Source: an uncultured Ignavibacteria bacterium
GTDB lineage: Bacteria > Bacteroidota > Ignavibacteria > Ch128b
DNA: 64,000 nt
Assembly (NCBI GenBank): GCA_937944105.1
Contig: CALDZP010000034.1
Coordinates: forward strand, 111,372-175,371
Reading direction: 5' to 3'
A model generated the notes under the pieces. The model searched no databases, was not told where the DNA came from, and saw only the letters and a program-made list of their open reading frames with translations. Position 1 is the first letter of the stretch; each line of letters begins with the position of its first letter. The position numbers and the translations under genes were made by a program. Shown here piece by piece: positions 1,659 through 15,667 of the stretch.

Positions 1659-2114
1659 ATGAATAGAGAAGAATTAGAAATGACAGCTAAAAATCTCGCA
1701 GATCTAACATTCCGTTTACTTGCCAGCTGTCATGAAAAAGAGGAAAGGTTAGCAAAATCTCATAATCTCACTCAAGCAGAATTCCGTTGCTTGAAGAGTA
1801 TGCAAGAAGGAGAAATTATTAATAACAGAGAAATTGCAAATAGACTTAGATTGAGTGCCAGTAGATTAACAAGAATTATTGATGGTCTTGTTCAAAAAGG
1901 ATTTGTTGTTCGGGAAATCGATCCAATGGATAGAAGGAATATGAGGCTTTATCTTTCACAGAAAGGCGTTGAATTTGTAAAAAAGATGAATGATGACTAC
2001 ATACTAATTCATAAGGAAATACTTGAAAATATAGAGAACGAACAACATCAGCCGCTAATAACAGCAATGACTCAACTACTTTCTGCTCTGGAAAAATGGA
2101 TTTCTAAGAGTTAG
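1659..2114 (+). CDS. MarR-family transcriptional regulator
   Basis: About 150 aa with a winged-HTH core (REIANRLRLSASRLTRIIDGLVQKGFVVREIDPMDRRNMRLYLSQKG) typical of MarR. It starts 29 nt downstream of the cytochrome gene. Confidence 0.8.
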   Translation: MNREELEMTAKNLADLTFRLLASCHEKEERLAKSHNLTQAEFRCLKSMQEGEIINNREIANRLRLSASRLTRIIDGLVQKGFVVREIDPMDRRNMRLYLSQKGVEFVKKMNDDYILIHKEILENIENEQHQPLITAMTQLLSALEKWISKS

Positions 2115-2127
2115 ATGTAAGTATCTT

Positions 2128-2164
2128 AGCGATTTCTTCTAAATTGAAGAAATCGCTTTTTTTA
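2128..2164 (+). terminator. intrinsic terminator after the MarR gene
   Basis: Perfect 12-bp stem AGCGATTTCTTC (2128-2139) / GAAGAAATCGCT (2146-2157), 6-nt loop, followed by a T7 run. Confidence 0.85.
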
Positions 2165-2254
2165 TTTAATCTACTCAATTTTGATTGGCTCTTAAGGGAA
2201 TCTTAAGTTTTTGGATCTATCTAATTTTCAAAGATTAAAATTTAATTTTTGAGA

Positions 2255-3178
2255 CTAATCTATTCCAAAAATCTCAGCAATACTTTCCTGAACATCTGAT
2301 TTGAACTCGCTTTCATATTTAGCATCAAAAACATAAGCTTTTATTTGAAATTCCAACTTTCCTCTGTCATTCAGACCTTTATAAACTATTTCAACAGGTC
2401 TGTTAATAGAATTATAAATGGAAAGAGATACTATTTCACTTAAACTTGATTTGATTTTTGAAATATCAGATCTAGGAGAAACTTCAACCACAAAACTTAC
2501 CTTCTTATTCTTTGAAATAATATTTAAATTTTCAAATGCATTTGTAATAAAGTAATAGTTTGGTATTGTAATTAAAGAATCATCTTCTGAAATAATTTCT
2601 GTCGTTCTCAAATTTTTAGCTCTGACTTTCCCAGAATAATTTCCAATTTTAATCCAGTCGCCATACTCAAATGGTTTATCCAGCAATATTAACAGTCCCC
2701 CAATTATATTTTTAGCCAGATCACTAAAAGAAATTATTGAGACAATAACTATAAAAATTAAAAAAAGTAAAAATAAAAAGATTGAAGATTTAAGTACTAA
2801 CGAGAAAATTAATGAAATTGTTAAAACCCATACTAATACATGAAGAGCAACTTTTAGTAAGTCAGCGTTTTTAAATCGCTTTGAAAAATTATATTTATTG
2901 TAAAGTATATTTATTCTATAATTAAGATAACTCATTAAAAAAACTAACAGAAGAACAAGTAATAACTTCCAGATATACAAGTTAAATTCATTAATTGATT
3001 TTTGAATTGAACCAATTAAATCGAAATATTTATTTGACCCAGTAGTTTTTTCTTGAACGATTACTCTTAGAGTTTCAACTTTAACCGAATTAGTTCCAAT
3101 GCTGTGCTGCTTGATGAGAGTATCGGGATTAATTAACTGAGTCTGTAAAAGAAAATAGATACAAGTTAGTATTTTCAT
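2255..3178 (-). CDS. MscS-family mechanosensitive ion channel
   Basis: TM helices followed by the MscS beta-domain signature GGLLILLDKPFEYGDWIKIGNYSGKVRAKNLRTTEIISEDDSLITIPN. I prefer the ATG at 3178 (MKILTC...) over the TTG at 3187 in the ORF track. That ATG sits 1 nt after the TGA of the upstream gene. Confidence 0.85.
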   Translation of the reverse strand: MKILTCIYFLLQTQLINPDTLIKQHSIGTNSVKVETLRVIVQEKTTGSNKYFDLIGSIQKSINEFNLYIWKLLLVLLLVFLMSYLNYRINILYNKYNFSKRFKNADLLKVALHVLVWVLTISLIFSLVLKSSIFLFLLFLIFIVIVSIISFSDLAKNIIGGLLILLDKPFEYGDWIKIGNYSGKVRAKNLRTTEIISEDDSLITIPNYYFITNAFENLNIISKNKKVSFVVEVSPRSDISKIKSSLSEIVSLSIYNSINRPVEIVYKGLNDRGKLEFQIKAYVFDAKYESEFKSDVQESIAEIFGID

Positions 3179-3179
3179 A

Positions 3180-6100
3180 TCAATCAAATATATGCAATTT
3201 TCTTAGTTCGATTTCAACTGGTTTATAAATTGCTGGATTAATAAAATAAATTTTTTCTCCTCTTTCATTCATATCGAATTGTATTAGGTTTGCAGAATTT
3301 AGAAAGTTTAATATGCCTTTTGATTTCTCATCATCACATTTGAATATTTCTTGGTGTTCTTTTATCGTTAAACTTCCATGTTGAATTAGATTAGAAAGAG
3401 TTAATAACATTTCAATATCGAAATTTTCAAGATACCTAAAATCTAATTTTTTAAGAGGTTTGATGTAAACGGTATCATTTTTAAAATCTTTTATTGATTT
3501 CATCCAATAAAATAGTGCAGATGTTATATTGCCTTCACATGCTTGATAAAGTTCATTAAAAAATTCTTCTTCTAGGGCTATTTGGTGATCTTGATGAAGA
3601 AGTGAGTATTTTAATTTTTTATGAACTTTATATTCCTCATCCGTAAGAAATTCTAAATTGTAACCAGAAGTTTTGTGTCGTTTTAATATAGCATCTTTAA
3701 TTTGTTCTTTAGAAAGTACTTCGGTTTTTAATTGAAAGGGGAAATAATTTCCGATATTCAAAATTCTATTTAATAGTTGCCATGCGTGGTAAGAGATTGA
3801 AACAATCCAGAAAATTTTATTACTTGTTTCTGAAATAATCAGAAGTAATTTTTTCATTGCTTCTAAGCCACCAAACTTACGAAGATAAATTTTATGTATA
3901 TCTTCAAGAATAATGATATTATACTTTGGCTCTAAATTAAGTTCGCTTATAATTTCGTCGGATGTTGCTATGTAATTCATACCAAGCATATCAGAAAGGA
4001 TTTTTAGCAATTCTTTTTCTGTAAGTATAGTTTTTTCAAAATTATATCGGTGAATATTTGTATCCGTATGGATTTTTGACAAAAAGGAACTTATCAAACT
4101 ACTTTTACCTGTTCCGCTTTCTCCAATTATTGCTGTGGAACCTGAAAGTCCTTTTTGATTTCTTTCAAAAGCCTGATTTATTAATTTTTTTTCTTTTTCT
4201 CTGCCTACAAGTATTTCTACTATTTCAGAAGATGTATAATCAAATAGTTTTTTGTAGACAAATGGTAATGAGTTATAGACTTTTTCATCGTAAACGGTCT
4301 GGTCATATAAATAAATAACTACGCTTTTCCCTTCTAAATCTACTGCAAAAAATTCTTTAACTTCTCTTACCAGTGGTTTTAAGTATCGGTTAGTTTTTCT
4401 ACTAATTAATAGATAGATCTTTTTGAAAAGAAGATAAAGTTCTTTGAGTTTATGATTAAGTTTAAGAATTAGAAACTGTGATTTGGAGATCTCTATTTGC
4501 TTTTCAAGTTTTTCGGTTAATTCTTTTCGAAAAGATTCTTTAATATTTGAAATTTGACTGTAGATTTTTTCTGTTAATGAAATTTCAACTTCTCTTTCAA
4601 ATTTTTCGACTTGCCGAGCCCAAACTTTTAATTTTTCTCGTAATAATTTTGTCGATGCTTTAAGAGTATCATCAACGATTTTTAAGATTTCTTCGTTAAC
4701 TCTGTCTTTAATTTTATCAGTTTTAAGTTTATTAAGCTCGTCAATAGCAATGTTAAAGTGATAGTAAATTACATTTTCGATGTTTTTAAGTTCGAGGATT
4801 GAGCTACTCAAATGACCGGAAATTATTTCGTTAAGCTTGATTAGTTCTTGAAGGATTTCGTTTTCGAAGTAATTTTTGATTATTTCAGGGAGATGTAATG
4901 TCTTCAACTCAATGTATTTAGTACGAGTTTCTTTTAGTTCAAAATCCTTTTCATCGAGAACTTTTATCTCTTTTTCATAATCTTTAATTATGAAATTAAA
5001 TTTATCTTTTAAAGAATTAATAATGTTTGTAATATTTTGAGTTTTTTTAATGAATGTGAGTTTACTAATACCTTTTTCGTTTAATACAAGAATTATTTCA
5101 TCACGATATTTTGAAATAAGATTTTCGATTTTTAATAAGTTCTCAAATTTTAAGAATTCTTTATTTGATATTTCTTTTTCGAAAGTTTTGAAAAGAGAGT
5201 CTAATTCTGAGATAAGATTTCTGATATGATTGTTTATCATATCAGAGTAATTAATCATTGTATCGTTAATGAGTAAATTTATTTTCCCGGTAATTTCAAA
5301 AGTACGAGCATCTCTTTCGCAAACCCCAAGAAATCCAATTAGATAGTTTACCCAGAACCTTATAGTTTCCAGTGTAGTTTCTTTAGCTTTAATTGATTCT
5401 GAATAGATCTTTGAAAAATGGAATTTTTTAATATTTAGTTCAATTGTGCCTGCTTTAAGAATTGATTTGAGAAATTGATTGAAAGGATTAGCAAATGCAT
5501 AATTAAGTCGAGTACTTATATTTTTATTCGATAATTCAATTTCTTCTCCGATAGAAGAAATTTCCTGTTTTAATCTCTCATGAATTTCATTTAATTTATC
5601 AACAGCTAACAATGAAACAGCTTCGACATCTTTGTGTTCAGCTATGAGATTAGTTAACTCTTCAAGATTTAATGTCACATCATCGTAAATTTTCTTTACT
5701 TTTCGAAGAACATTTAATCTTTCAAGTCCTAAAAGAAAAGCTACCTTTTCCATCTCAAGTGCGATTTGGTATTCAAAGTAATATTTAACTAAAGTAACAT
5801 AAGGTATTTTTCTTTTCAGGAAAGATTTAAAACCTAAGGTTTTTCTGATTTTTCTATTAATTCGTTTAATAGATTTAGAGAATTTAACTAGATAACTATC
5901 ATCAATTTCAGTTTCGTATTTATCTTTTTCCTGTTCAACTACAACAAAATCTGGAGCAGATTCGCAGTAATCTTTTAAATCATCAAATAATTTTTGAAGT
6001 AGAAATTCAGCATTTAAGATTTGTTGTTCAACTGATTTTCTTTGGATACTAACTTTTGCAAACCATTCAGAGATTTCTTGTTGAGTTAAAAGAACTTTTT

Positions 6101-7709
6101 CTTTGATTTCTTTGCCGGATATTTTGCCACTGGTAAAAATATTTTTAAGTTGTTGGTATTCATCAATGTATTTTTCAACTATTTGATAATAAAACTCGAG
6201 AGCTTCTTCGCTTCTCTTGTTAATTAAAATATTTTCAAATTCTTGAAGATGTGATATTAAGTTTTCCCTGAGAGAAATTATAAGTTCATTTAATGATTTA
6301 TCTTCAAATTGTGGAACATTGAATTTTTTATATGGTGTTATTTGCTCTGTAAATTCATATTCAATTTTTTTATCTTTTTCTGTAAATGCGCGATTCCAGG
6401 CTTTGTTGTATTTTTTAATTGCTAACTTGAATAATGCAGGTCCGAACAGAAGATTCAAGCTCACCACCGAAATAATAATTGGGAATAAGTATTCACCAAT
6501 TTGCGGGATTCGAGAAATTATAAAAATTGTTAAACCAATAACAATTGATGATTGAGATATAAAACCAAGCCATAAATTATTTTTCAGTTCGGTTTCTTTG
6601 CCCGTTATTCTAAGTGCCATTCTTGTTGAAAGAAATATAATCAGTGTTCTTACAATAAAAATGATTAGAGCAATCTGATACGTATAAACAAGTAATTTAA
6701 TGTTTAAACTTGCACCCACTATAGTAAAGAAAACGACAAAAATTAACATCGATAACTTTTCAATAGATTCAATTAACTCATCGTCAAATTTTGAGTAATT
6801 TTTTAAAACAAAACCAGTTATGATGAAAACAAGAAATGTATTTAGTTGTAGGTATTCACTTATTCTTGAGCCAATAAGGATAAACGCTAAAAGGAAAATA
6901 AATTTTTCGGATTTAATGAATTTTAAATATCCAATTGCAATTAAACCTAAAATAATTCCAAATATTATTGAAAGTAGAACTTCTTGAAGAATTGTGAAAA
7001 ACCTTAAAGAGTCAAATCCAATGCTTTGAAAATTTAATATTGAATTAGAAATACTAAAAAGAAATCCAAGTAAAATTGCAATTACAATATCTTTTATTAC
7101 AGCAGTGTTTAAAACTAATTTTGAAAGTTTACTTCTATCACCTGTTTCATTCATTACTGCGATTGTTACTGCAGGAGAAGTTTCAATCATTAATAAACTT
7201 ACTAACAGACTTAACAGAATCAAATTGTTGAAACTTATATTTTTTAAAAACTCAACTTGTGGTGAAATAATAATCAATAATAAAGTGATGATAGACAGAG
7301 TTGCAATGACTTTAAAGAGGACAATAAATGAAATTGTTCTTTTTTCAATTTTCAGATCTTTAATATTAATTTCACTACCAGCATATAATGATATTAACCC
7401 AATTGCCAATCCATTTAATAATTTTAGGTCGTTAATAGCCAAATCAGAAAAGATGCCTAAAAGTTTTGTTTTGAAAATAATATCCGAATATGGTCCAAAA
7501 ATTACTCCAGCAATTAAATAACCAATTATTTTTGGAATACCTAATAAATTTGTTAATTCACCAAAAGAAAAAGCGGCAAGTAAGATAAAACCAAGAGCAA
7601 TTAAAGTTTCAGCATGAAAATTTAAAGAATCTGAGGGCTGCAATAGTTTGAAAGCAACTATTAAAAAAATTAATAGAATGATTACTAAAAATCTTCGCAA
7701 AATGGACAT
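3180..7709 (-). CDS. 1509-aa fusion: N-terminal cation/proton-antiporter-like polytopic membrane domain, ~650-aa coiled coil, C-terminal ORC/Cdc6-type P-loop ATPase with winged-helix-like tail
   Basis: Uninterrupted 4.5-kb ORF. Residues ~1-440 are polytopic, with a Na_H_Exchanger-like start (GELTNLLGIPKIIGYLIAGVIFGP). Residues ~445-1130 are K/E/I/L-rich heptad-like sequence. Then LVGREKEKKLINQAF followed by Walker A GESGTGKSS (nt 4098-4124) and Walker B IIILEDIH (~nt 3900-3925). The C-terminal ~90 aa look like a helix-turn-helix/winged helix (LSNLIQHGSLTIKEHQEIF...ILNFLNSANLIQ). Confidence 0.75.
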   Translation of the reverse strand: MSILRRFLVIILLIFLIVAFKLLQPSDSLNFHAETLIALGFILLAAFSFGELTNLLGIPKIIGYLIAGVIFGPYSDIIFKTKLLGIFSDLAINDLKLLNGLAIGLISLYAGSEINIKDLKIEKRTISFIVLFKVIATLSIITLLLIIISPQVEFLKNISFNNLILLSLLVSLLMIETSPAVTIAVMNETGDRSKLSKLVLNTAVIKDIVIAILLGFLFSISNSILNFQSIGFDSLRFFTILQEVLLSIIFGIILGLIAIGYLKFIKSEKFIFLLAFILIGSRISEYLQLNTFLVFIITGFVLKNYSKFDDELIESIEKLSMLIFVVFFTIVGASLNIKLLVYTYQIALIIFIVRTLIIFLSTRMALRITGKETELKNNLWLGFISQSSIVIGLTIFIISRIPQIGEYLFPIIISVVSLNLLFGPALFKLAIKKYNKAWNRAFTEKDKKIEYEFTEQITPYKKFNVPQFEDKSLNELIISLRENLISHLQEFENILINKRSEEALEFYYQIVEKYIDEYQQLKNIFTSGKISGKEIKEKVLLTQQEISEWFAKVSIQRKSVEQQILNAEFLLQKLFDDLKDYCESAPDFVVVEQEKDKYETEIDDSYLVKFSKSIKRINRKIRKTLGFKSFLKRKIPYVTLVKYYFEYQIALEMEKVAFLLGLERLNVLRKVKKIYDDVTLNLEELTNLIAEHKDVEAVSLLAVDKLNEIHERLKQEISSIGEEIELSNKNISTRLNYAFANPFNQFLKSILKAGTIELNIKKFHFSKIYSESIKAKETTLETIRFWVNYLIGFLGVCERDARTFEITGKINLLINDTMINYSDMINNHIRNLISELDSLFKTFEKEISNKEFLKFENLLKIENLISKYRDEIILVLNEKGISKLTFIKKTQNITNIINSLKDKFNFIIKDYEKEIKVLDEKDFELKETRTKYIELKTLHLPEIIKNYFENEILQELIKLNEIISGHLSSSILELKNIENVIYYHFNIAIDELNKLKTDKIKDRVNEEILKIVDDTLKASTKLLREKLKVWARQVEKFEREVEISLTEKIYSQISNIKESFRKELTEKLEKQIEISKSQFLILKLNHKLKELYLLFKKIYLLISRKTNRYLKPLVREVKEFFAVDLEGKSVVIYLYDQTVYDEKVYNSLPFVYKKLFDYTSSEIVEILVGREKEKKLINQAFERNQKGLSGSTAIIGESGTGKSSLISSFLSKIHTDTNIHRYNFEKTILTEKELLKILSDMLGMNYIATSDEIISELNLEPKYNIIILEDIHKIYLRKFGGLEAMKKLLLIISETSNKIFWIVSISYHAWQLLNRILNIGNYFPFQLKTEVLSKEQIKDAILKRHKTSGYNLEFLTDEEYKVHKKLKYSLLHQDHQIALEEEFFNELYQACEGNITSALFYWMKSIKDFKNDTVYIKPLKKLDFRYLENFDIEMLLTLSNLIQHGSLTIKEHQEIFKCDDEKSKGILNFLNSANLIQFDMNERGEKIYFINPAIYKPVEIELRKLHIFD

Positions 7710-7710
7710 A

Positions 7711-8943
7711 TTATTTTATCTCGTTAAGATCTATTAATAAGTCTTTAGTAATTTTTGTAGAAAAAATTTCATTAATCAAAACCGCAAATACAATGATAGA
7801 AAAAATTGTATTGCTCAATTGATTATTGAAGATCTGTTGGTAATTGACCATTATAGCTATAGCAATAATTCCTTGAGTATTTAGTCCCTTACCAATGATT
7901 TGATTGAATTTTGTTTTATCAAAAGAAGCCTTATATGCAACCCAGCCACTGAAGTATTTTATGAAATATCTGAGGAACAAATAAGCTAAAAGTCCAAAGA
8001 TAAAAATTAGAAAATTATCAATTCTAATCAGTGCACCTGCATATATTAAAATAATGACATAGAAATGATATTCCAGTTTCTTGAAAAGTTCAATTATCAA
8101 TTCCTTTGATTTGTAGAAATTTCCAATTACAAGACCAACAATTAAATTTATGAACAATGGCGATAGATTTAAATAGTAAGCTGAACCAGAAGTAAAAATA
8201 ATAATGCCGAGAATTGCAATTAATAATTTATTCTCGTTTTCTTCACGTTCAAGAAAAATAAAAAATAAGAATCCAAGAAAAAGTCCAATAAATATACTAA
8301 CAACAAACCATTCAACTGGAGTGATTGAAATGATACCTGTAGATCCAGAATGGAATATTGAAAACATCAATCCAAGAATAAAAAGTGAGAGAAAATTGTT
8401 GAGTTTTGGAATTAAGAATAGAGTGTGAAAATTTTTTCCTTCTATTTGAAATTTATTTTTTAATGATTCCAGAACCGAATGCGAAAGAGTTGAAGATGTA
8501 ATTCCAATAATTAATGAATTAGTTAATAAACTGTTAAGGGTCATGAGATTCTTATAAAAATGTTCCATAATCAAAAAACTGATGCCACTCATTAGAAGTG
8601 TGGATAAAAAAACATCAAAGAGAGAAAGTTTAAAGTGCTCAATCGAATAATTCAAAAGATCTTTAATTCGAAATTGAAATCCCACTGAAAAGCCAACTGA
8701 ACCAAGGATTGCGGCAATTACAGGTTCAAGTTGAACAGTCCCTTCTCCAGAAAGAAGTACTGGAAGAGAAATTCCAAAATTCTTATTAATGAAATTTATA
8801 AAAGGCTCACCAATTAAAATACCAATAAAAAGAAACTCCAGTCCTGTGAAGAAGAGGAATTTTTTCTGTAACTTTTTATTTACAAAATTTAAAGAAAGAA
8901 AGCCCGCAATAACAAGCAAAATTAAAAGTAGAAATGTATCCAT
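7711..8943 (-). CDS. polytopic membrane protein, cation/proton-antiporter-like
   Basis: 410 aa, hydrophobic throughout (10 or more predicted helices by eye), with no soluble domain. Its stop is 1 nt from the ATG of the 1509-aa gene. Confidence 0.6.
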   Translation of the reverse strand: MDTFLLLILLVIAGFLSLNFVNKKLQKKFLFFTGLEFLFIGILIGEPFINFINKNFGISLPVLLSGEGTVQLEPVIAAILGSVGFSVGFQFRIKDLLNYSIEHFKLSLFDVFLSTLLMSGISFLIMEHFYKNLMTLNSLLTNSLIIGITSSTLSHSVLESLKNKFQIEGKNFHTLFLIPKLNNFLSLFILGLMFSIFHSGSTGIISITPVEWFVVSIFIGLFLGFLFFIFLEREENENKLLIAILGIIIFTSGSAYYLNLSPLFINLIVGLVIGNFYKSKELIIELFKKLEYHFYVIILIYAGALIRIDNFLIFIFGLLAYLFLRYFIKYFSGWVAYKASFDKTKFNQIIGKGLNTQGIIAIAIMVNYQQIFNNQLSNTIFSIIVFAVLINEIFSTKITKDLLIDLNEIK

Positions 8944-8991
8944 CTCTTATTTTATTTATTAAAAATCTCTACAAATATGCAAATCGTTAAA

Positions 8992-10173
8992 TTATTTTCC
9001 ATAAGGAGAGTTAAGATATTTTTTGGCGAGATAATGTGAATCACCCCAATCTTTAATAGAAAGAACATAATTATAAAATTTTATTGCCTCGTCTCTTTTA
9101 TTCATTAAATCATATACGATACCAAGATTAAGAGCTGCTGAAGTCTGAAATCCCGATTCTTCACCTTTTTTATCTATTTCTTTACATATATCTAAACATT
9201 TTTGAAAATAAAATGCTGACGAATCATACATTCCCGAAAGACGGTAATGCATTCCAATATAATAAGAGGCTTCACGCATTGCATTTTTTGTATATCCAGG
9301 TAGACTCGACTCACCCCTTCTATATACTTCCAGAAAAATTTTTGATGCGTTTTCGTAATCCCCATACTTAATGTAAGTCCTACCTAAGAAACGATGGAAA
9401 ATAGGATTCATTGGATACTGTTGATGTAATTGCAAAGCGTAGATTCGTGCCTGATAAATATCTTCTTCATAGTAATAATATAAGTTCAATAGAAAATATT
9501 TTGCTTCAGTAGATGCGAATTTAGCTTTTTCAGCGGCTGTTTTTAATTGTTGAATTCCAAGTGTTTTGTTGCCTTTAGGGAAAAAAATCATTAATGGTTT
9601 TATATATGGATATTCCTCTGGAATCACTTCGGCAAAATAGTTATAGATTCCCATGCCAAATAATATATCGTAATTGGTTGAATCTATCGACCAAGCAAGT
9701 TGAAGCAGAGGCAACGCCTCTCTTCCATCGTCGGCGGCTTTGATCCAGCTATCTCTTAAGGCTCTTAGTCTTCCTCTAAATCCAATTGCTCCACCTTTAA
9801 AGAAAATAGCATTAAGATTTTTTTCATCTTTTTTTAAGATCTGATCACAATGAAAAATTACATCTTCAAGTTTTTCAAGAAATAAGTCATCATAACTTTC
9901 GTTATCCGGATCAATGGCAATTTTCCACCAATCAATCATTGCGAGGAAAAATCTACCAGCTGGATTATGAGGGTAATCGAGCATTAGTTCTTTAAATGTA
10001 ACTTCAGCCGAATCAAATTGAATATTATAAATATATTCGATTCCTTTTTTTATTCTTGAATCAAAATCTAATGAATAATTCTGATTTTGGTCGAAAGAAT
10101 CAGGAATTATATTGATAGATGAAATTAGAATCGAATAAAACCCAAAGACGAAAATTAAAATTGCCCTTATCAT
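8992..10173 (-). CDS. TPR-repeat protein with N-terminal signal/anchor
   Basis: N-terminal hydrophobic segment, then repeated 34-aa-type A/Y/L patterns (e.g. ASYYIGMHYRLSGMYDSSAFYFQKCLDI, ALNLGIVYDLMNKRDEAIKFYNYVL). It ends 48 nt upstream of the next gene on the same strand. Confidence 0.7.
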   Translation of the reverse strand: MIRAILIFVFGFYSILISSINIIPDSFDQNQNYSLDFDSRIKKGIEYIYNIQFDSAEVTFKELMLDYPHNPAGRFFLAMIDWWKIAIDPDNESYDDLFLEKLEDVIFHCDQILKKDEKNLNAIFFKGGAIGFRGRLRALRDSWIKAADDGREALPLLQLAWSIDSTNYDILFGMGIYNYFAEVIPEEYPYIKPLMIFFPKGNKTLGIQQLKTAAEKAKFASTEAKYFLLNLYYYYEEDIYQARIYALQLHQQYPMNPIFHRFLGRTYIKYGDYENASKIFLEVYRRGESSLPGYTKNAMREASYYIGMHYRLSGMYDSSAFYFQKCLDICKEIDKKGEESGFQTSAALNLGIVYDLMNKRDEAIKFYNYVLSIKDWGDSHYLAKKYLNSPYGK

Positions 10174-10182
10174 AATAATTTA

Positions 10183-10214
10183 GGTCAGTCCGAATTTAAT
10201 TTTTCGGACTGACC
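10183..10214 (-). terminator. hairpin terminator between the lipoprotein and TPR genes
   Basis: Perfect 12-bp stem GGTCAGTCCGAA (10183-10194) / TTCGGACTGACC (10203-10214), 8-nt loop, 8 nt past the stop at 10222. The trailing sequence on the minus strand is only moderately T-rich. Confidence 0.55.
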
Positions 10215-10221
10215 ATGAAAT

Positions 10222-11115
10222 TTATTTTTTTACAACTCTAAGGTTTGTGATTGGTTGTATTTTATATTCAAACTCGGCAGTTTTATATGCATCAGTTCCA
10301 GATCCGGTTGTTCTAATATTTTTTACCCAGACTTTGACATAAATACTATCTTGAGTTTTAAGTAAATAAACATTGTCTTTAACAACAGACACAGCTGAGA
10401 GAGTAGGTTCTTCTAATCCTTCAACTAAATCAAATCCATCTTGGGCAGTTTTTGGAACAACAGCAAATTTAGTAGTTCTTGCACCTGGATAAGCAGCTTT
10501 GACATTGGGAGAATAAAATGTCAATACATTGCTTGCGGAATCAGTTCTCATGTGCAAATCAATATAAGGATAATTTGACTGACCGAATGAATATTGAGAG
10601 CCAGCACCAGTTGATGGATTCCATCCATAACCGGATTTTGCAGGGCCTGTTAATTTAAATTCATCGATCATTCCCTCACCATAAAAGACACCAGCATAAA
10701 TTACAGTTCCAAAAGGAATGCTTCGTTTGCCATCATTATTAACCGCATACACATAAGATTTGTATCTTACAAATCTTTGAATGTTTGAGATGGTTCTTTT
10801 ACGTGATTCAATTTTTGGGATAAAAACAGAATCAACTGTGTTCGTTGGTTCTCCAAGTTGATTTACAGTGTAGGTGACAACTATGTAACCCTTAAAGTCA
10901 GAGTTATCATGTTGAGGTGATTTATCCCAGCTTACAATAGCGAAGCTTTCTCCGCCGGCAATTGCGTCAACTACAACATAAACATTTGCTGGGGGATTGG
11001 GTGCTTTAGATTGTGGTGGCTCTGGTTCAGTAGATTTTGAGCAGTCAGCTGCAGTAAAGATGAAATAAATTGTAAATAAAAATAATACTAAAATTGTTTT
11101 TTTGTTTGCTTTCAT
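10222..11115 (-). CDS. hypothetical lipoprotein (beta-rich, FN3-like N-terminal part)
   Basis: Signal peptide ending in a lipobox-like FTAADC. No catalytic motif recognised. Confidence 0.6.
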   Translation of the reverse strand: MKANKKTILVLFLFTIYFIFTAADCSKSTEPEPPQSKAPNPPANVYVVVDAIAGGESFAIVSWDKSPQHDNSDFKGYIVVTYTVNQLGEPTNTVDSVFIPKIESRKRTISNIQRFVRYKSYVYAVNNDGKRSIPFGTVIYAGVFYGEGMIDEFKLTGPAKSGYGWNPSTGAGSQYSFGQSNYPYIDLHMRTDSASNVLTFYSPNVKAAYPGARTTKFAVVPKTAQDGFDLVEGLEEPTLSAVSVVKDNVYLLKTQDSIYVKVWVKNIRTTGSGTDAYKTAEFEYKIQPITNLRVVKK

Positions 11116-11130
11116 TCTAACTCCTATTAA

Positions 11131-12471
11131 TTAGTCTAACTTTTCTTTTAAAAACTCACGAATTTTATTCATATCAATTCTAATTTGTTCCATAGAATCT
11201 CTCTCTCGAATTGTAACTGTTTGATCTTGTAAAGTTTGGCTATCTACAGTTATACAATATGGAGTGCCAACTTCATCCTGTCTTCTATATCTTCTACCAA
11301 CCGCTCCTTTATCATCGTAAAATACTCTGAAGTCTCTTCTCAGGTCCTCAGTAATTTTACGAGCAATTTCAGGCATGCCATCTCTATTGACTAATGGGAA
11401 TATGCCTACCTTAATTGGTGCGAGTTTTTGATGTAATCTTAAAACAACTCGCTTTTCACCTCGGACTTCTTCTTCGTGGTAAGCGTCAATTAAAAAAGTC
11501 ATAAAGCTTCGACTTGCACCAGCAGAAGTTTCAATAATGTAGGGGATATATTTTTCGTTTATTTCATCATCAAAGTAATCTAATGCTTTCCCTGAATAAT
11601 TTGTATGTTGAGTTAAGTCAAAATTAGTTCGATTATGTATACCTTCAATTTCACCCCAACCGAAAGGGAATTCATATTCAATATCTACGGCAGCTTTTGC
11701 ATAATGTGCAAGTTTATCTTCTGGGTGAGGAGAAAATCTTAATTTTTCTTTTTTAAGTCCAAGCTCAATAAACCATTTCAATCTCTCTTCTTTCCAGTAT
11801 TCAAACCATTTCATATCATCACCTGGACGTACAAAGTATTGCATCTCCATTTGTTCGAATTCACGAGTTCTGAATAAAAAGTTTTTTGTGTTGATTTCAT
11901 TCCTGAATGCTTTACCAATTTGAGCAATCCCAAATGGAATTTTTTGTCTTGAAGAATTTAGAACATTTAAAAAATTAACGAAAATACCTTGAGCAGTTTC
12001 AGGTCGCAAATAAACAATAGCTGCATCTTCTTCCACAGGTCCGATAAAAGTTTTGAACATTAAGTTAAATTGTCGTGGTTCTGTGAATTTCCCTTCTTCC
12101 TGACACTTTATTGCTTTTCGACCTTTATAGGCTGGATTACCACACATTGCATCTTCCAATTGATCAGCACGGAAGCGAGCTTTACATTCTTTACAATCGA
12201 CCATCGGATCAGTAAAATTTGCCACATGTCCCGAAGCTTCCCAGACTTTTGGATGCATTAGAATTGCCGCATCAATTCCTTCTATATCTTCCCTGAAAGT
12301 CATTGACTGCCACCACTCACGTTTAATATTATTTAATAATTCTACTCCAAGTGGTCCATAGTCCCAGCATCCATTAAGTCCGCCATAAATTTCCGATGAC
12401 TGAAAAACAAAACCTCTTCTTTTTGCAAGAGAAACAATAGTTTCAAGAGATATATTCAAGCTTACCTCCAA
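11131..12471 (-). CDS. glyQS: glycine--tRNA ligase (homodimeric class II type)
   Basis: Characteristic N-terminus RRGFVFQSSEIYGGLNGCWDYGPLGVELLNNIKREWW, class II core motifs, and a C-terminal anticodon-binding region (PIKVGIFPL). Confidence 0.93.
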   Translation of the reverse strand: MEVSLNISLETIVSLAKRRGFVFQSSEIYGGLNGCWDYGPLGVELLNNIKREWWQSMTFREDIEGIDAAILMHPKVWEASGHVANFTDPMVDCKECKARFRADQLEDAMCGNPAYKGRKAIKCQEEGKFTEPRQFNLMFKTFIGPVEEDAAIVYLRPETAQGIFVNFLNVLNSSRQKIPFGIAQIGKAFRNEINTKNFLFRTREFEQMEMQYFVRPGDDMKWFEYWKEERLKWFIELGLKKEKLRFSPHPEDKLAHYAKAAVDIEYEFPFGWGEIEGIHNRTNFDLTQHTNYSGKALDYFDDEINEKYIPYIIETSAGASRSFMTFLIDAYHEEEVRGEKRVVLRLHQKLAPIKVGIFPLVNRDGMPEIARKITEDLRRDFRVFYDDKGAVGRRYRRQDEVGTPYCITVDSQTLQDQTVTIRERDSMEQIRIDMNKIREFLKEKLD

Positions 12472-12563
12472 AATTGTTTTAATTAAAAATAAAAATACTT
12501 AAGCTTTTTCAGGTTTACAAATATGTCCTGCAAATTGAAACTTGAATTAGATTATTGATGAGC

Positions 12564-13424
12564 CTAACGAAATAATTTTTTTATTGAGTCGATTTTTTTT
12601 TCATCAAAATTAGATTTGGTCATTTCTACTGTCATTTGTCCAAATTTTCGATAAATCTCCTTTAGGTTAGAATCAACTTTTGATAACATTTCGAGATGCT
12701 TTTTAATGACCGGTAAATCGAATCTAACTATCGGTCCCGTTAAAGAATTTTTTATACCGTATGTTTCAATGTTTTGGATTGTAGATTTTAATAAATTAAG
12801 ATATGATTTAAATACTTTCCTGCCAAAGATTTTTTCAATCTGATAAAAATTAGTAACAGTATAATTGGAAATCAAAACTGAGAAAATATGATAAAGAACT
12901 TTTTCATCCGATTTGATTTGAATAAAATTGTAATTCAATCTCTTACACAACTTTTTAGCGAATAAAGTTGCCTTGCGAGATTTACTCTCAATTGCAAAGA
13001 AGCATTCATTAAATTTTATTAATTTTTCTTTCCCGGTTATAGTCTTGACAAAACTAAAATTAGGATGAAGTGAAAAAACTTCACAACCTTTTTTCTTAAG
13101 CGGTTCTAATTCATCAGAATTTAGAGTTCCGGAAGTGTGAAATGCGAATTTATTTTTAAAATTATGAAAGGCTTTTTCAAGCTCATTTGCTACTTCATTT
13201 ATAAATCTATCTTGAACCGCAATTAAAAAAATATTGGTTTGCTCGGGAATATCAGAAAATTTTGATGAAAAAATTTCTGCTTTAACTAAAGAGGCTAATC
13301 TTTTGGCTTTATTTAAATCTTTATCTATTACAGCTAAAACATCCAGATTTTTGTTTTTGAAATCTAAAGCAAATGCACTTCCAACTTTTCCTGCACCAAT
13401 AATTGCAATCTTTAAATTATTCAT
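12564..13424 (-). CDS. Rossmann-fold NAD(P)-binding protein with DUF2520-like C-terminal domain
   Basis: N-terminal dinucleotide-binding motif IAIIGAGKVGSAF. The length and layout match the family annotated 'Rossmann-like and DUF2520 domain-containing protein'. Confidence 0.65.
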   Translation of the reverse strand: MNNLKIAIIGAGKVGSAFALDFKNKNLDVLAVIDKDLNKAKRLASLVKAEIFSSKFSDIPEQTNIFLIAVQDRFINEVANELEKAFHNFKNKFAFHTSGTLNSDELEPLKKKGCEVFSLHPNFSFVKTITGKEKLIKFNECFFAIESKSRKATLFAKKLCKRLNYNFIQIKSDEKVLYHIFSVLISNYTVTNFYQIEKIFGRKVFKSYLNLLKSTIQNIETYGIKNSLTGPIVRFDLPVIKKHLEMLSKVDSNLKEIYRKFGQMTVEMTKSNFDEKKIDSIKKLFR

Positions 13425-13437
13425 GTGATTTCAATCA

Positions 13438-14271
13438 TTAAATTTCCTTGTAAAATGCAGCCGAAAGGTATCCCACAACTTGATGCTTATCGCCACTGGC
13501 TTCACTCGAATCATTCCTATAAAGAACTTTTGATTTATTTGCTCCTAAAATTTTTGATGCACGCATCACTGTTACTATTGGGCCCCCGCCACATGCTTGA
13601 ACTTTTTCTTCTTCAAGTTCATCAATCAAAGAATCATCATCATAATTGTTAATTAATTTTTCTATTCTTGAATCGAGGCTATTGGCAACATCATGAGAAT
13701 AGTAATGTGAAAGATCTGAACTTGCAACCATAAGTATATTCTTATTCTTCAAAATTTCAGCGAGGATTTCAGCTAATGCAAAAACAAAATCTTTACTTTG
13801 ATCACCCATAACGATTGGGAGTAGTTTAAACTGATTCAAAACAACCTGAAGGAAAGGAAGCTGGACTTCAAGAGCATGTTCTCTACCATGTCCTCTTTTC
13901 GATATTTCTAAGATGCTGTTATAATCTTTCAACTGTTCACGCAATTCATGATCTATTTCTACAATACCAAGTGGTGTTTGATAAGCTGAGCCATTATAGA
14001 TGGATACACCTCTAAAATACTCATAATGACTCGGTGAAATGACAATAACTGTATCGTAATTTTTATTCTCAATTAACTTATATCCATAAGCCGCAGTTTT
14101 TCCCGAATAAAAATAACCAGCGTGAGGTGAAACAAGTCCAATTATCTCTCCAGAAATTTTGGGAGGTTTAACATTTTTGAGAAACTCATCAATAGTCTTT
14201 TTTAGTTTTACTGGCTCCCTTTCATAGAACATTCCAGCAACTGCCGGTGGTCGAATTTCTGTGGTTATCAT
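13438..14271 (-). CDS. amrB: AmmeMemoRadiSam system protein B (MEMO1 family)
   Basis: RPPAVAGMFY start and the SPHAGYFYSGKTAAYGY motif typical of Memo-like proteins. It overlaps the upstream AMMECR1 gene by 4 nt. Confidence 0.85.
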   Translation of the reverse strand: MITTEIRPPAVAGMFYEREPVKLKKTIDEFLKNVKPPKISGEIIGLVSPHAGYFYSGKTAAYGYKLIENKNYDTVIVISPSHYEYFRGVSIYNGSAYQTPLGIVEIDHELREQLKDYNSILEISKRGHGREHALEVQLPFLQVVLNQFKLLPIVMGDQSKDFVFALAEILAEILKNKNILMVASSDLSHYYSHDVANSLDSRIEKLINNYDDDSLIDELEEEKVQACGGGPIVTVMRASKILGANKSKVLYRNDSSEASGDKHQVVGYLSAAFYKEI

Positions 14272-14834
14272 TTTTCCTGCCTCCTTAATTCACTTTCGGA
14301 AAAAACTTCCGCAGTAAAAATTTCAATTATTGTTTCGGGATCTTTCCACTCGTTTTTGCTTAATCCAGCTTTCTGGCATGTGTGTTCAAGAAACTCTTTC
14401 ACCGTCCAGTTATATTTTGCCGCAACCTGAGGTAAAAGCAATCCATGGAAAGGTCCCTTCTGTATAATAAGTCCATGCTCTCCAATTTTAATATCTTCGA
14501 TATTAGTTATTTTTTTTGGTGGAGAAAGAACAGAAATTTCTATCTCAATTGAATCTAATTCTTCTTCTGTTAAAGGATAAAATCTTGGATCTTCAAAAGC
14601 TGATTTTTTAGCGACTATGTGAATGAGTTCAAAAAGTGGTTTGTCACTTATGATATAACCAATGCAACCTCTTAATTCACCATTGATTGATAATGTAACG
14701 AAAGCTCCGCATTTCTGATTTAATGATTCAGGTAATTCTTGATTGAAATTAAAACCCTCTCTTCCAAATTCTTCTTCGATGGATTTTCTCGCAATTTGTA
14801 AAAGTAATTTTTTTTCGTTATCTGTAAATTTCAT
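14268..14834 (-). CDS. amrA: AmmeMemoRadiSam system protein A (AMMECR1 domain)
   Basis: AMMECR1 core CGAFVTLSINGELRGCIGYI and DPRFYPLTEEEL...IEISVLSPP. Confidence 0.85.
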   Translation of the reverse strand: MKFTDNEKKLLLQIARKSIEEEFGREGFNFNQELPESLNQKCGAFVTLSINGELRGCIGYIISDKPLFELIHIVAKKSAFEDPRFYPLTEEELDSIEIEISVLSPPKKITNIEDIKIGEHGLIIQKGPFHGLLLPQVAAKYNWTVKEFLEHTCQKAGLSKNEWKDPETIIEIFTAEVFSESELRRQEK

Positions 14835-14842
14835 TTTTAATC

Positions 14843-15667
14843 CTATGACAACAATCTATAGCCAATAAGTTTTACTTTGTTTTGTATGAAATAAAGATAA
14901 TTATCATACATAAAAAATGAATCTGGTACTGGAGCAGGAGTTGATTGATTTAGTATTTCAAATAAGATAGGTTTTTTGTCAACTTTATCATAAATAATAA
15001 GTCGGTTTATTAAACTATGAGGCTCAATTTTATCATAATAACTAAATATAAAATAATCATTGTAATCAATGAATTCACAAAGATTAAATAATAAATTATC
15101 GCCTATTAAGGCTGAGACAATATCTTTTTGTATTTGTTCTGTATCATCGTCACCGAGGGTTTTTGTAAAAATATATCTTGAATAATCTTTCTCTGGAATG
15201 GAGTTCAAAATAGGTCTTAATTGATCCTTATTTCCAAGAGCAGCAATAATGTTACCACTTTCAATTTCTAATTGATAAAACTCTAAATTGTCTAAATTAT
15301 GAAGATATCCATAAATAAATTTGTCATCAATATCATAAAAAGTAAGATCATCATTTACCCAAAGGATATCACCAGATTTTAAATCGACATTGATTATTTT
15401 CTTATGCATTGGCATATCTGGCTTTTCAAATTGATGAAGTATCAAATAATTTGATTTAGTTCCTTCAATTCCAATCCAGAATTTCTCATTGAGAAAAGAT
15501 TTATTTTTCCAGAAAATTTTCCCCTTTAATCTATCAATACAAGAAAAATATACTTCTTTATTCTGAATATCTCTCTCTTCTACGACAATTTGATCAAGAT
15601 CAGTTAGGATAATTCTCCAAATATTTCTGCCCTGACTGTATTCAAATATTTTTTGAACTTTCTGCAT
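14843..15667 (-). CDS. hypothetical protein (beta-rich, W/Y-rich repeats)
   Basis: Clean 274-aa ORF ending 8 nt upstream of amrA on the same strand. No motif recognised with confidence. Confidence 0.55.
   Translation of the reverse strand: MQKVQKIFEYSQGRNIWRIILTDLDQIVVEERDIQNKEVYFSCIDRLKGKIFWKNKSFLNEKFWIGIEGTKSNYLILHQFEKPDMPMHKKIINVDLKSGDILWVNDDLTFYDIDDKFIYGYLHNLDNLEFYQLEIESGNIIAALGNKDQLRPILNSIPEKDYSRYIFTKTLGDDDTEQIQKDIVSALIGDNLLFNLCEFIDYNDYFIFSYYDKIEPHSLINRLIIYDKVDKKPILFEILNQSTPAPVPDSFFMYDNYLYFIQNKVKLIGYRLLS

Follow-up and report, generated by a model that had tools for sequence, protein, structure and literature searches.

A conserved operon of Ignavibacteria containing a CPA2-type transporter–ATPase fusion gene and a gene for an MscS-type channel protein

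Organization of the locus

The stretch analyzed here, referred to as the window, is 64,000 nt of DNA from an uncultured Ignavibacteria bacterium (contig CALDZP010000034.1). Near its start four genes on the minus strand specify a TPR protein, a CPA-like membrane protein, a giant protein of 1509 residues and an MscS-type channel protein. The giant protein consists of a CPA2-type membrane domain, a long helical region and an ORC/Cdc6-like AAA+ domain, the last two of which we call the helical-AAA+ module. The locus is a real conserved operon, and its comparison with related loci indicates that a widespread two-gene unit, in which a gene for a large ORC/Cdc6-like ATPase protein is directly followed by one for its own MscS-type channel, has here been elaborated in a lineage-specific manner.

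The features are collected in Table 1. The giant gene extends from 3180 to 7709, and the last open reading frame (ORF) was listed as 2255–3187. Four same-strand genes, a gap of 48 nt between the TPR and CPA-like genes, and two junctions at which a stop codon, a single nucleotide and an ATG follow one another had been described in the initial annotation, and all of these are present in the sequence. The junction between the CPA-like and giant genes reads aaa-TAA-t-ATG (7713–7707) and that between the giant and MscS genes gat-TGA-t-ATG (3182–3176). Based upon the latter, the MscS gene most likely starts at the ATG at 3178 and not at the TTG at 3187 given in the ORF list. The spacing of the last three genes is also tight in relatives, the genes overlapping by up to 14 nt or lying up to 49 nt apart, as is ordinary in bacterial operons. 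The stop–1 nt–ATG geometry is not kept in those relatives which carry the same fusion (the fusion clade), and it is therefore uninformative on the fixed stoichiometry which had been read from the identical junctions.

Table 1. Features of the operon and its boundaries
Feature	Position (nt)	Strand	Basis or remarks
Hairpin, 12-bp	10183–10214	-	Between fn3 gene and TPR gene; folding energy, hairpins in L001 and L002
TPR protein, 393 aa	8992–10173	-	Pfam TPR_12 1.1e-11, also TPR_1/TPR_2
CPA-like membrane protein, 410 aa	7711–8943	-	Pfam Na_H_Exchanger (PF00999) 34.3 bits, cut-off 26.2
CPA2-type membrane domain, aa 1 to ~440 of giant protein	6390–7709	-	Pfam, TIGR00932, KefC alignment
Helical region, aa ~482–1147 of giant protein	4269–6266	-	AlphaFold2 model m17ea14cc7158, Foldseek
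Motif LPFVYKKLF	4242–4268	-	Near-invariant
ORC/Cdc6-like AAA+ domain and winged helix, aa 1148–1509	3183–4268	-	Foldseek, AAA_16, motif statistics
Walker A GESGTGKSS, aa 1196–1204	4098–4124	-	Intact GxxxxGK[ST]
Walker B ED (ILED, aa 1267–1270)	3900–3905	-	Acidic residues intact
MscS-family channel gene, 307 aa from ATG 3178	2255–3178	-	Pfam MS_channel_2nd (PF00924) 77.4 bits, cut-off 20.2
Hairpin, 12-bp, GC-containing, A/T runs on both sides	2128–2157		Between convergent MarR gene and MscS gene; terminator scan and sequence

Full-length homologs of the giant protein (~1500 aa, 48–81% identity) come, where their source is named, from Ignavibacteria only. All six lineages of the fusion clade (the window, L001, L002/3, L004/5, L094 and L095) share the gene order AMMECR1, Memo, DUF2520, GlyRS, fn3-like, TPR, CPA-like, giant, MscS, while the genes downstream of the block vary. 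In every fusion-clade locus recovered the giant homolog lies between an antiporter-like gene and an mscS gene, which is the neighborhood that had been proposed for examination. The most distant fusion locus, L096 (giant protein 29%, CPA-like protein 33% identical), still has its CPA-like gene directly upstream of the giant gene. There the giant homolog (L096:3605–6350) ends halfway through the helical region, at residue 767, and is overlapped by 8 nt by a new ORF shortly ahead of the contig end; either the gene is truly split, or a frameshift or an assembly error is responsible.

Pairing of the helical-AAA+ module with MscS-type genes

More distant matches to the C-terminal 1060 residues of the giant protein are of two kinds: soluble proteins of ~1000 aa without a Pfam domain, and transporter fusions of ~1700 aa in which an AA_permease domain and the start of the SLC12 C-terminal domain precede the helical-AAA+ module. 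In a profile search the module family numbered 4165 representatives of 50%-identity clusters at E<1e-3 and 1922 at E<1e-30, most of them ~1000 aa long. Where its members are named they are called "ATP-binding protein" or "hypothetical", and NCBIfam models gave nothing meaningful on the stand-alone forms.

An MscS gene lies directly 3' of the module gene in all four of the distant contexts L006–L009. Eighty loci from species-representative genomes were retrieved with the pattern LP[FY]VY[QR][RN]LF, the sample being biased to members from Bacteroidota and Ignavibacteriota, and all ORFs of a scored set of 89 loci were compared with in-house profiles. The sampled carriers include Cytophagales (Fulvivirga, Catalinimonas, Flexithrix, Cyclobacteriaceae), Flavobacteriaceae (Polaribacter, Aquimarina), Saprospiraceae, Prolixibacteraceae and Ignavibacteriota. 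At 84 of the 86 loci with enough flanking sequence an MscS gene is found directly downstream on the same strand, about -140 to +131 nt from the ATPase stop codon, and the same holds for five loci added later (L091–L095). Any other neighbor is common to at most 22 of the 89 loci. The only two exceptions are L086 (Bacteroidales), which has no MscS gene within the next 2.4 kb downstream, and L038 (Cyclobacteriaceae), where it lies 1.7 kb downstream; the latter distance suggests an insertion.

With a profile built for the partner proteins, complete partner genes scored E values of 1e-61 to 1e-116 versus 1e-6 to 1e-64 for the other MscS genes of the same loci. Since they outscore most of these by far, the partners form an MscS subfamily dedicated to the ATPase module. 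The four-gene functional set of the initial annotation thus stands in part: the genes do constitute a same-strand, conserved block, but its conserved core is the helical-AAA+/MscS pair and not all four genes.

The fusion protein

The membrane domain of the giant protein scores 69.6 bits with PF00999 (cut-off 26.2), residues 48–427 matching profile positions 7–374 of 375, and 44.3 bits with the CPA2 model TIGR00932, far under the cut-off of 238.3. It aligns end to end with the membrane domain of E. coli KefC at 15–18% identity. Its fourth transmembrane helix (TM4) bears ETSPAV (176–181), and TM5 bears K206–D207 where KefC has Q-D; K206 is invariant and the D207 position is occupied by E in L001. 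Pfam and NCBIfam gave no match to a C-terminal KTN/RCK (TrkA_N) domain anywhere in the giant protein, and sequence and profile searches of the PDB returned no match for its CPA domain.

Because the KefC membrane domain aligns with the fusion's from end to end, the helical region which follows is taken to be cytoplasmic. These ~650 residues, for which there is no Pfam or NCBIfam model, were predicted by AlphaFold2 from 68 sequences with a predicted local distance difference test score (pLDDT) of 83.4 and a predicted template modelling score of 0.73, as very long antiparallel helices with two small beta hairpins. Foldseek found no PDB match below E 0.28, the rows for MscK, bacterial dynamin and alpha-pore-forming toxins being non-significant, and neither sequence nor profile searches with the whole C-terminal 1060 residues matched a PDB entry. 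The order of secondary-structure elements hints at a two-fold repeat, for which the hhalign signal is weak (E 0.009, probability 4.7%).

The last ~360 residues are modelled as an AAA+ core, a lid and a C-terminal winged helix, with pLDDT mostly 78–92 except in one loop. Pfam matches to this module are weak (AAA_16, nSTAND1, nSTAND3), AAA_16 giving 34.2 bits over residues 1167–1224. The top Foldseek matches are archaeal and eukaryotic ORC/Cdc6 proteins, namely ORC2, Cdc6 and Orc1 (1w5t, 1fnn, 2qby) and 7jgr_G, with E values of 1e-8 to 3e-7 and probability 1.00; after these come the Pyrococcus ATPase 2qen, Apaf-1 and plant NLR resistosomes. The chain ends in the winged helix at residue 1509, and no C-terminal sensor repeat (TPR, WD40 or LRR) follows. 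Across the family the most conserved motifs are LPFVYQRLF, KRH..SGY, YW.RS and LLHDGL.

The lysine of Walker A is kept in 26 of 26 CPA fusions and in the six APC fusions whose motif could be scored, and Walker B reads ED in all 21 non-redundant CPA fusions aligned, where stand-alone forms mostly have EN. Judged by these motifs, the fusion protein looks catalytically competent, and the two membrane proteins encoded on either side of it look diverged at hallmark positions.

The flanking membrane proteins

The 410-residue CPA-like protein is a full-length paralog of the membrane domain of the giant protein, its family profile aligning to residues 39–426 of the latter (E 2e-14). It bears N182–N183 where CPA2 proteins have the Q/D-D motif of TM5, N183 standing opposite D207 of the fusion and the pair opposite the Q-D of KefC, and its equivalents in L002 and L004 have S-N. 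With asparagine in place of the TM5 carboxylate it is doubtful that this protein carries out antiport. The family is narrow, comprising 34 clusters on contigs which match in length those with the giant protein, and no PDB match was found by sequence or profile search. The C-terminal ten residues, D[LV]LIDLNEI(K/S) (window 7711–7740), are invariant in four aligned members which are 44–53% identical to that of the window, and could be a docking peptide. They are encoded just ahead of the start of the giant gene.

The MscS-type protein retains the hinge motif N..GG...D(K/R)PF, the segment NIIGGLLILLDKPF aligning with E. coli MscS. Its TM3 reads VSIISFSD (VIVSIISFS), versus GIAVGFAAQD in the partners of stand-alone ATPases and GLAVGLALQ in E. 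coli MscS. The Gly/Ala-rich pore helix is lost in five of five partners from the CPA clade and only in that clade, and we would suggest that the MscS-like protein of the fusion clade is probably a remodelled subunit. The view that the locus combines three ion-conducting modules was therefore overstated, since the TM5 carboxylate is absent from the CPA-like protein and the Gly/Ala-rich pore helix from the clade's MscS protein.

Evolution of the module

A tree built on the ATPase domain places the CPA fusions in a single clade and the APC fusions in a second, each with SH-aLRT support of 100. The CPA-fusion clade is nested among stand-alone forms, its sister group has the ATPase–MscS pair only, and the rest of the tree follows taxonomy. 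This topology indicates that the module was fused to secondary transporters at least twice, to a CPA2 domain (fusion proteins of ~1500 aa) and to an APC/SLC12 transporter (fusion proteins of ~1700 aa), and that the CPA2 domain was gained in a single event in the Ignavibacteria clade of the window. The TPR gene and the extra CPA-like gene are later additions to the core pair.

Proposed function and alternatives

The near-constant pairing, the dedicated MscS subfamily and the two independent transporter fusions argue together for a functional, and probably physical, link between the module and the flux of ions or solutes. We propose that the helical-AAA+ module would serve the MscS-type channel, and in the fusions also the attached transporter, as a partner subunit or regulator, and that it would couple both the release of solutes and the exchange of cations for protons to the cell's nucleotide state. 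Such a role would resemble that of the KTN/RCK domain and of KefF in KefC, although the domains are unrelated. Since the fusion protein has kept the Walker A lysine, the ED of Walker B and the TM5 acid where the others have lost their hallmarks, its own exchanger domain is probably the active transporter. This CPA domain may heterodimerize with the carboxylate-less paralog, a guess that rests on the tight coupling of the two genes and their full-length paralogy. A physical complex of the products is plausible. Gene structure, domain content, folds, the conserved pairing, the independent fusions and the motif states are established here, and from these we infer physical contact, nucleotide dependence and a role in ion or osmotic balance; the fusion clade points to an undescribed way of controlling that balance.

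As a whole, then, the reading we favor is that of a helical-AAA+/MscS core, to which a CPA2 domain has been fused in this lineage, with a partner or regulator role in ion and osmotic homeostasis and not in defence. We put its probability at about 0.55. More tentatively, and with the odds somewhat against it, one might go further and suppose that the helical-AAA+ protein is an obligate auxiliary subunit which binds its MscS-type channel from the cytoplasm and determines how the channel gates, and that in the fusion clade it joins exchanger, pseudo-exchanger and remodelled MscS protein into one nucleotide-controlled ion-homeostasis machine. Were this true, it would be the first case of a bacterial mechanosensitive channel with a partner encoded by a gene of its own.

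Several points weigh against the favored reading. At the position of the Walker A lysine most stand-alone forms have I, A, V, T, L or S, the exception being a clade of Flavobacteriaceae; canonical ATP hydrolysis therefore cannot be essential to what the family does in common, which weakens the notion of an ATP switch. Identity in the alignments to KefC and E. coli MscS is low, at 12–26%. Two of the three membrane modules have lost hallmark residues, a possible sign of roles other than ion conduction. NTPases of the ORC/Cdc6-like and STAND types are often found in defence systems, and DNA is the usual ligand of a winged helix. Finally, no RNA runs with this stretch were found, the only matches being DNA runs labelled marine metagenome.

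The domain composition invites comparison with anti-phage or abortive-infection systems, in which a STAND/ORC-like NTPase would sense infection and open MscS-like pores or transporter effectors so that the membrane potential collapses. The weak AAA_16, nSTAND1 and nSTAND3 matches, the Apaf-1 and NLR resistosome folds, and toxin-antitoxin genes a few kb from the block in L004 are in keeping with this, and defence NTPases typically carry membrane "effector" domains fused at the N-terminus. The domains fused here, however, are secondary transporters of 12–13 TMs and not simple pore-formers, the NTPase chain lacks a C-terminal array of sensor repeats, and most members have lost the Walker A lysine which STAND activation requires. 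PADLOC models matched none of six proteins (the ATPase, CPA and MscS proteins and two distant relatives), the domain tree follows taxonomy and is not patchy, and the surroundings are stable housekeeping genes (GlyRS, AMMECR1, Memo) in six lineages down to 48% identity. On the strength of the flanks, the tree, the PADLOC result and the missing repeats a housekeeping role is favored, and we consider defence decidedly unlikely. A role of the ORC type in origin binding or replication initiation is likewise unlikely because of the fused transporter and the MscS partner. The protein might instead bind DNA as a soluble or membrane-tethered regulator and set the transcription of the mscS gene that follows it according to ionic conditions; the nearest solved folds are indeed DNA-binding initiators with a C-terminal winged helix, and membrane-tethered transcription factors such as ToxR and CadC exist. 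But neither a 650-residue helical region nor fusion to a transporter of 12–13 TMs is needed by a repressor or activator, regulators are seldom translationally coupled upstream of a sole target so constantly, and no conserved operator-like repeat turned up, although none was looked for. This we hold to be very unlikely.

Obligate gene pairing would fit equally well with an AAA+-like chaperone or scaffold which serves the assembly or localization of the heptameric MscS-type channel, and of the transporter, and does not regulate gating. The degenerate Walker A of most members would suit a scaffold, and the very long helical region could be a ruler or tether. Covalent fusion to a transporter nevertheless suggests permanent and not transient association, AAA+ remodelling chaperones normally have intact Walker motifs, and no pore-loop-type unfoldase features were seen, the top folds belonging to the initiator/STAND clade and not to Clp/Hsp100. 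We hold an assembly or quality-control factor to be unlikely, but a scaffold or assembly role is a rival to be taken seriously. Lastly, the four genes could be housekeeping genes which are adjacent through lineage-wide synteny and form no functional unit, AMMECR1, Memo, DUF2520, GlyRS and fn3 being equally syntenic in the fusion clade. For the TPR gene this may well hold. For the last three genes it is largely refuted: adjacency of the ATPase and MscS genes persists across orders and two phyla while all other neighbors change, the module is physically fused to transporters twice, and the CPA-like and giant genes remain adjacent even in L096, beside a different upstream gene. As an account of the whole locus it is barely credible.

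Relation to known systems

The component domain families are known, and the helical-AAA+/MscS module is without a described counterpart. In full-text literature searches neither an AAA+/ORC-like partner of MscS channels nor any of these transporter fusions was found described, in agreement with the earlier remark that the gene combination is not a recognized system, and the papers searched yielded no auxiliary subunit of an MscS channel with a gene of its own.

One close analogy is with KefC and KefB, the glutathione-gated K+/H+ exchangers, in which a CPA2 membrane domain is also followed in one chain by a cytoplasmic, nucleotide-binding regulatory module, partner subunits (the ancillary KefF or KefG) are encoded by tightly coupled neighboring genes (E. 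coli kefF overlaps kefC from upstream), and the TM4 and TM5 motifs can be aligned. Here, however, KTN/RCK is replaced by the 650-residue orphan helical region, the ORC/Cdc6-like AAA+ domain and the winged helix; TM5 carries K-D and not Q-D, with TIGR00932 far under its cut-off; and the partners are a carboxylate-less CPA paralog and an MscS-type protein and not a flavoprotein. MscK/KefA, MscM, YbiO, YnaI and the bCNG channels with their cNMP-binding domain likewise combine an MscS core with large extra helical or regulatory parts, thought to tune gating, but in the present case the extra part is a separate cytoplasmic polypeptide with an AAA+ domain, and the structural match of its helical region to MscK is not significant (7uw5, E 1.1).

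With ORC/Cdc6 initiators and the STAND, AAA_16 and ATPase_2 NTPases the module shares the AAA+ core, lid and C-terminal winged helix, and (F/L)VGRE before Walker A. It differs in that it has no replication context, is attached to transporters and paired with channels, has lost the Walker A lysine in most stand-alone members, and lacks the C-terminal sensor repeats of STAND proteins. The cytoplasmic C-terminal domain of SLC12/CCC cotransporters regulates transport, and the sister fusions carry an APC/AA_permease core with the start of this domain, so that the module attaches behind the regulatory tails of ion transporters. The protein of the window has instead a CPA2 core, and no described CCC has an AAA+ module.

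MscS channels and CPA2 exchangers are textbook elements of bacterial osmotic and ionic homeostasis, the channels being thought of as self-contained tension sensors. A family of thousands, encoded with its own MscS paralog and repeatedly fused to transporters, implies an unstudied layer of control or assembly, and there is no structural precedent for its helical domain of ~650 residues. Its members are plentiful among Bacteroidota and Ignavibacteriota from the sea and from sediments, and with cultivable carriers such as Fulvivirga, Polaribacter, Aquimarina and Flexithrix the question is directly testable. The clade of the window is in itself a natural experiment, in which the ATPase motifs are intact and two membrane partners are without their hallmark residues.

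The TPR gene and the boundaries of the operon

The TPR protein begins with a hydrophobic segment, MIRAILIFVFGFYSILISS, and is probably exported or membrane-anchored. The gene lies upstream in the six lineages and is missing from L096, where a sigma-54 response regulator occupies its place. Its synteny is no better than that of the unrelated GlyRS, fn3 and AMMECR1 genes, and because these are equally conserved the gene order within the fusion clade cannot prove that it belongs to the unit. We regard it as a lineage-specific neighbor and later addition whose membership is uncertain. The part of adaptor that had been assigned to its product is unlikely for a cytoplasmic ATPase, given the N-terminus, which suggests a periplasmic location.

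Upstream of the TPR gene the 10183–10214 hairpin forms a perfect 12-bp stem with an 8-nt loop (-21.8 kcal/mol, z = -5.6), equalled by none of 200 shuffles. It has no U tract, and hence was not listed in the terminator scan. In L001 and L002 terminator-like hairpins of other sequence lie in the same gap between the genes, with a T8 tail in L002, and speak for a transcript boundary ahead of the TPR gene. The hairpin is probably the end of the upstream transcription unit, and its earlier designation as the upper limit of the operon is borne out by the strong fold and by the equivalents in the two relatives. At the other end, the hairpin at 2128–2157 is probably a bidirectional terminator which closes the operon. 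No riboswitch or other RNA family scored above the Rfam gathering threshold between 2000 and 10400.

Over the operon (window 2001–9000) G+C is 26–28%, versus 32–34% in both flanks. This may reflect membrane and helical proteins rich in I, L, F, K, N and E, or a different history.

Other genes near the pair

Upstream of the operon, window 10222–15667 carries genes for an fn3-like protein (297 aa), GlyRS, a DUF2520 Rossmann protein, Memo and AMMECR1, in an order kept in five fetched fusion-clade lineages. The AMMECR1/Memo (AmmeMemoRadiSam) pair has no radical-SAM partner nearby.

At L007:5692–7997 and equivalent positions (L010–L026, L034, L046, L071, L080, L089 and others) same-strand genes for a RimB-like zinc protease, a RimK ATP-grasp glutamate ligase and an AstE/AspA-like deacylase lie directly 5' of the ATPase–MscS pair. 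Glutamate is a major osmolyte and is exported by MscS channels, and the link may be meaningful; its distribution looks like lineage synteny. The trio, present at 18–22 of the 89 loci, mostly in Fulvivirga and other Cytophagales, was rejected as part of the system on that ground.

In a locus from Leptospiraceae (L009:15036–18339) the pair of APC-fusion and MscS genes is followed within 2–4 kb by a second MscS-family gene, for a protein of 673 aa, and one for a 410-aa Na_H_Exchanger protein, and the three module types are thus co-located once more. On the minus strand of L007 (13260–15219) a CorA-like gene adjoins a second MscS gene, neighbors which resemble the cmaX-cfrX-cmpX arrangement of Pseudomonas aeruginosa (PMC7641640).

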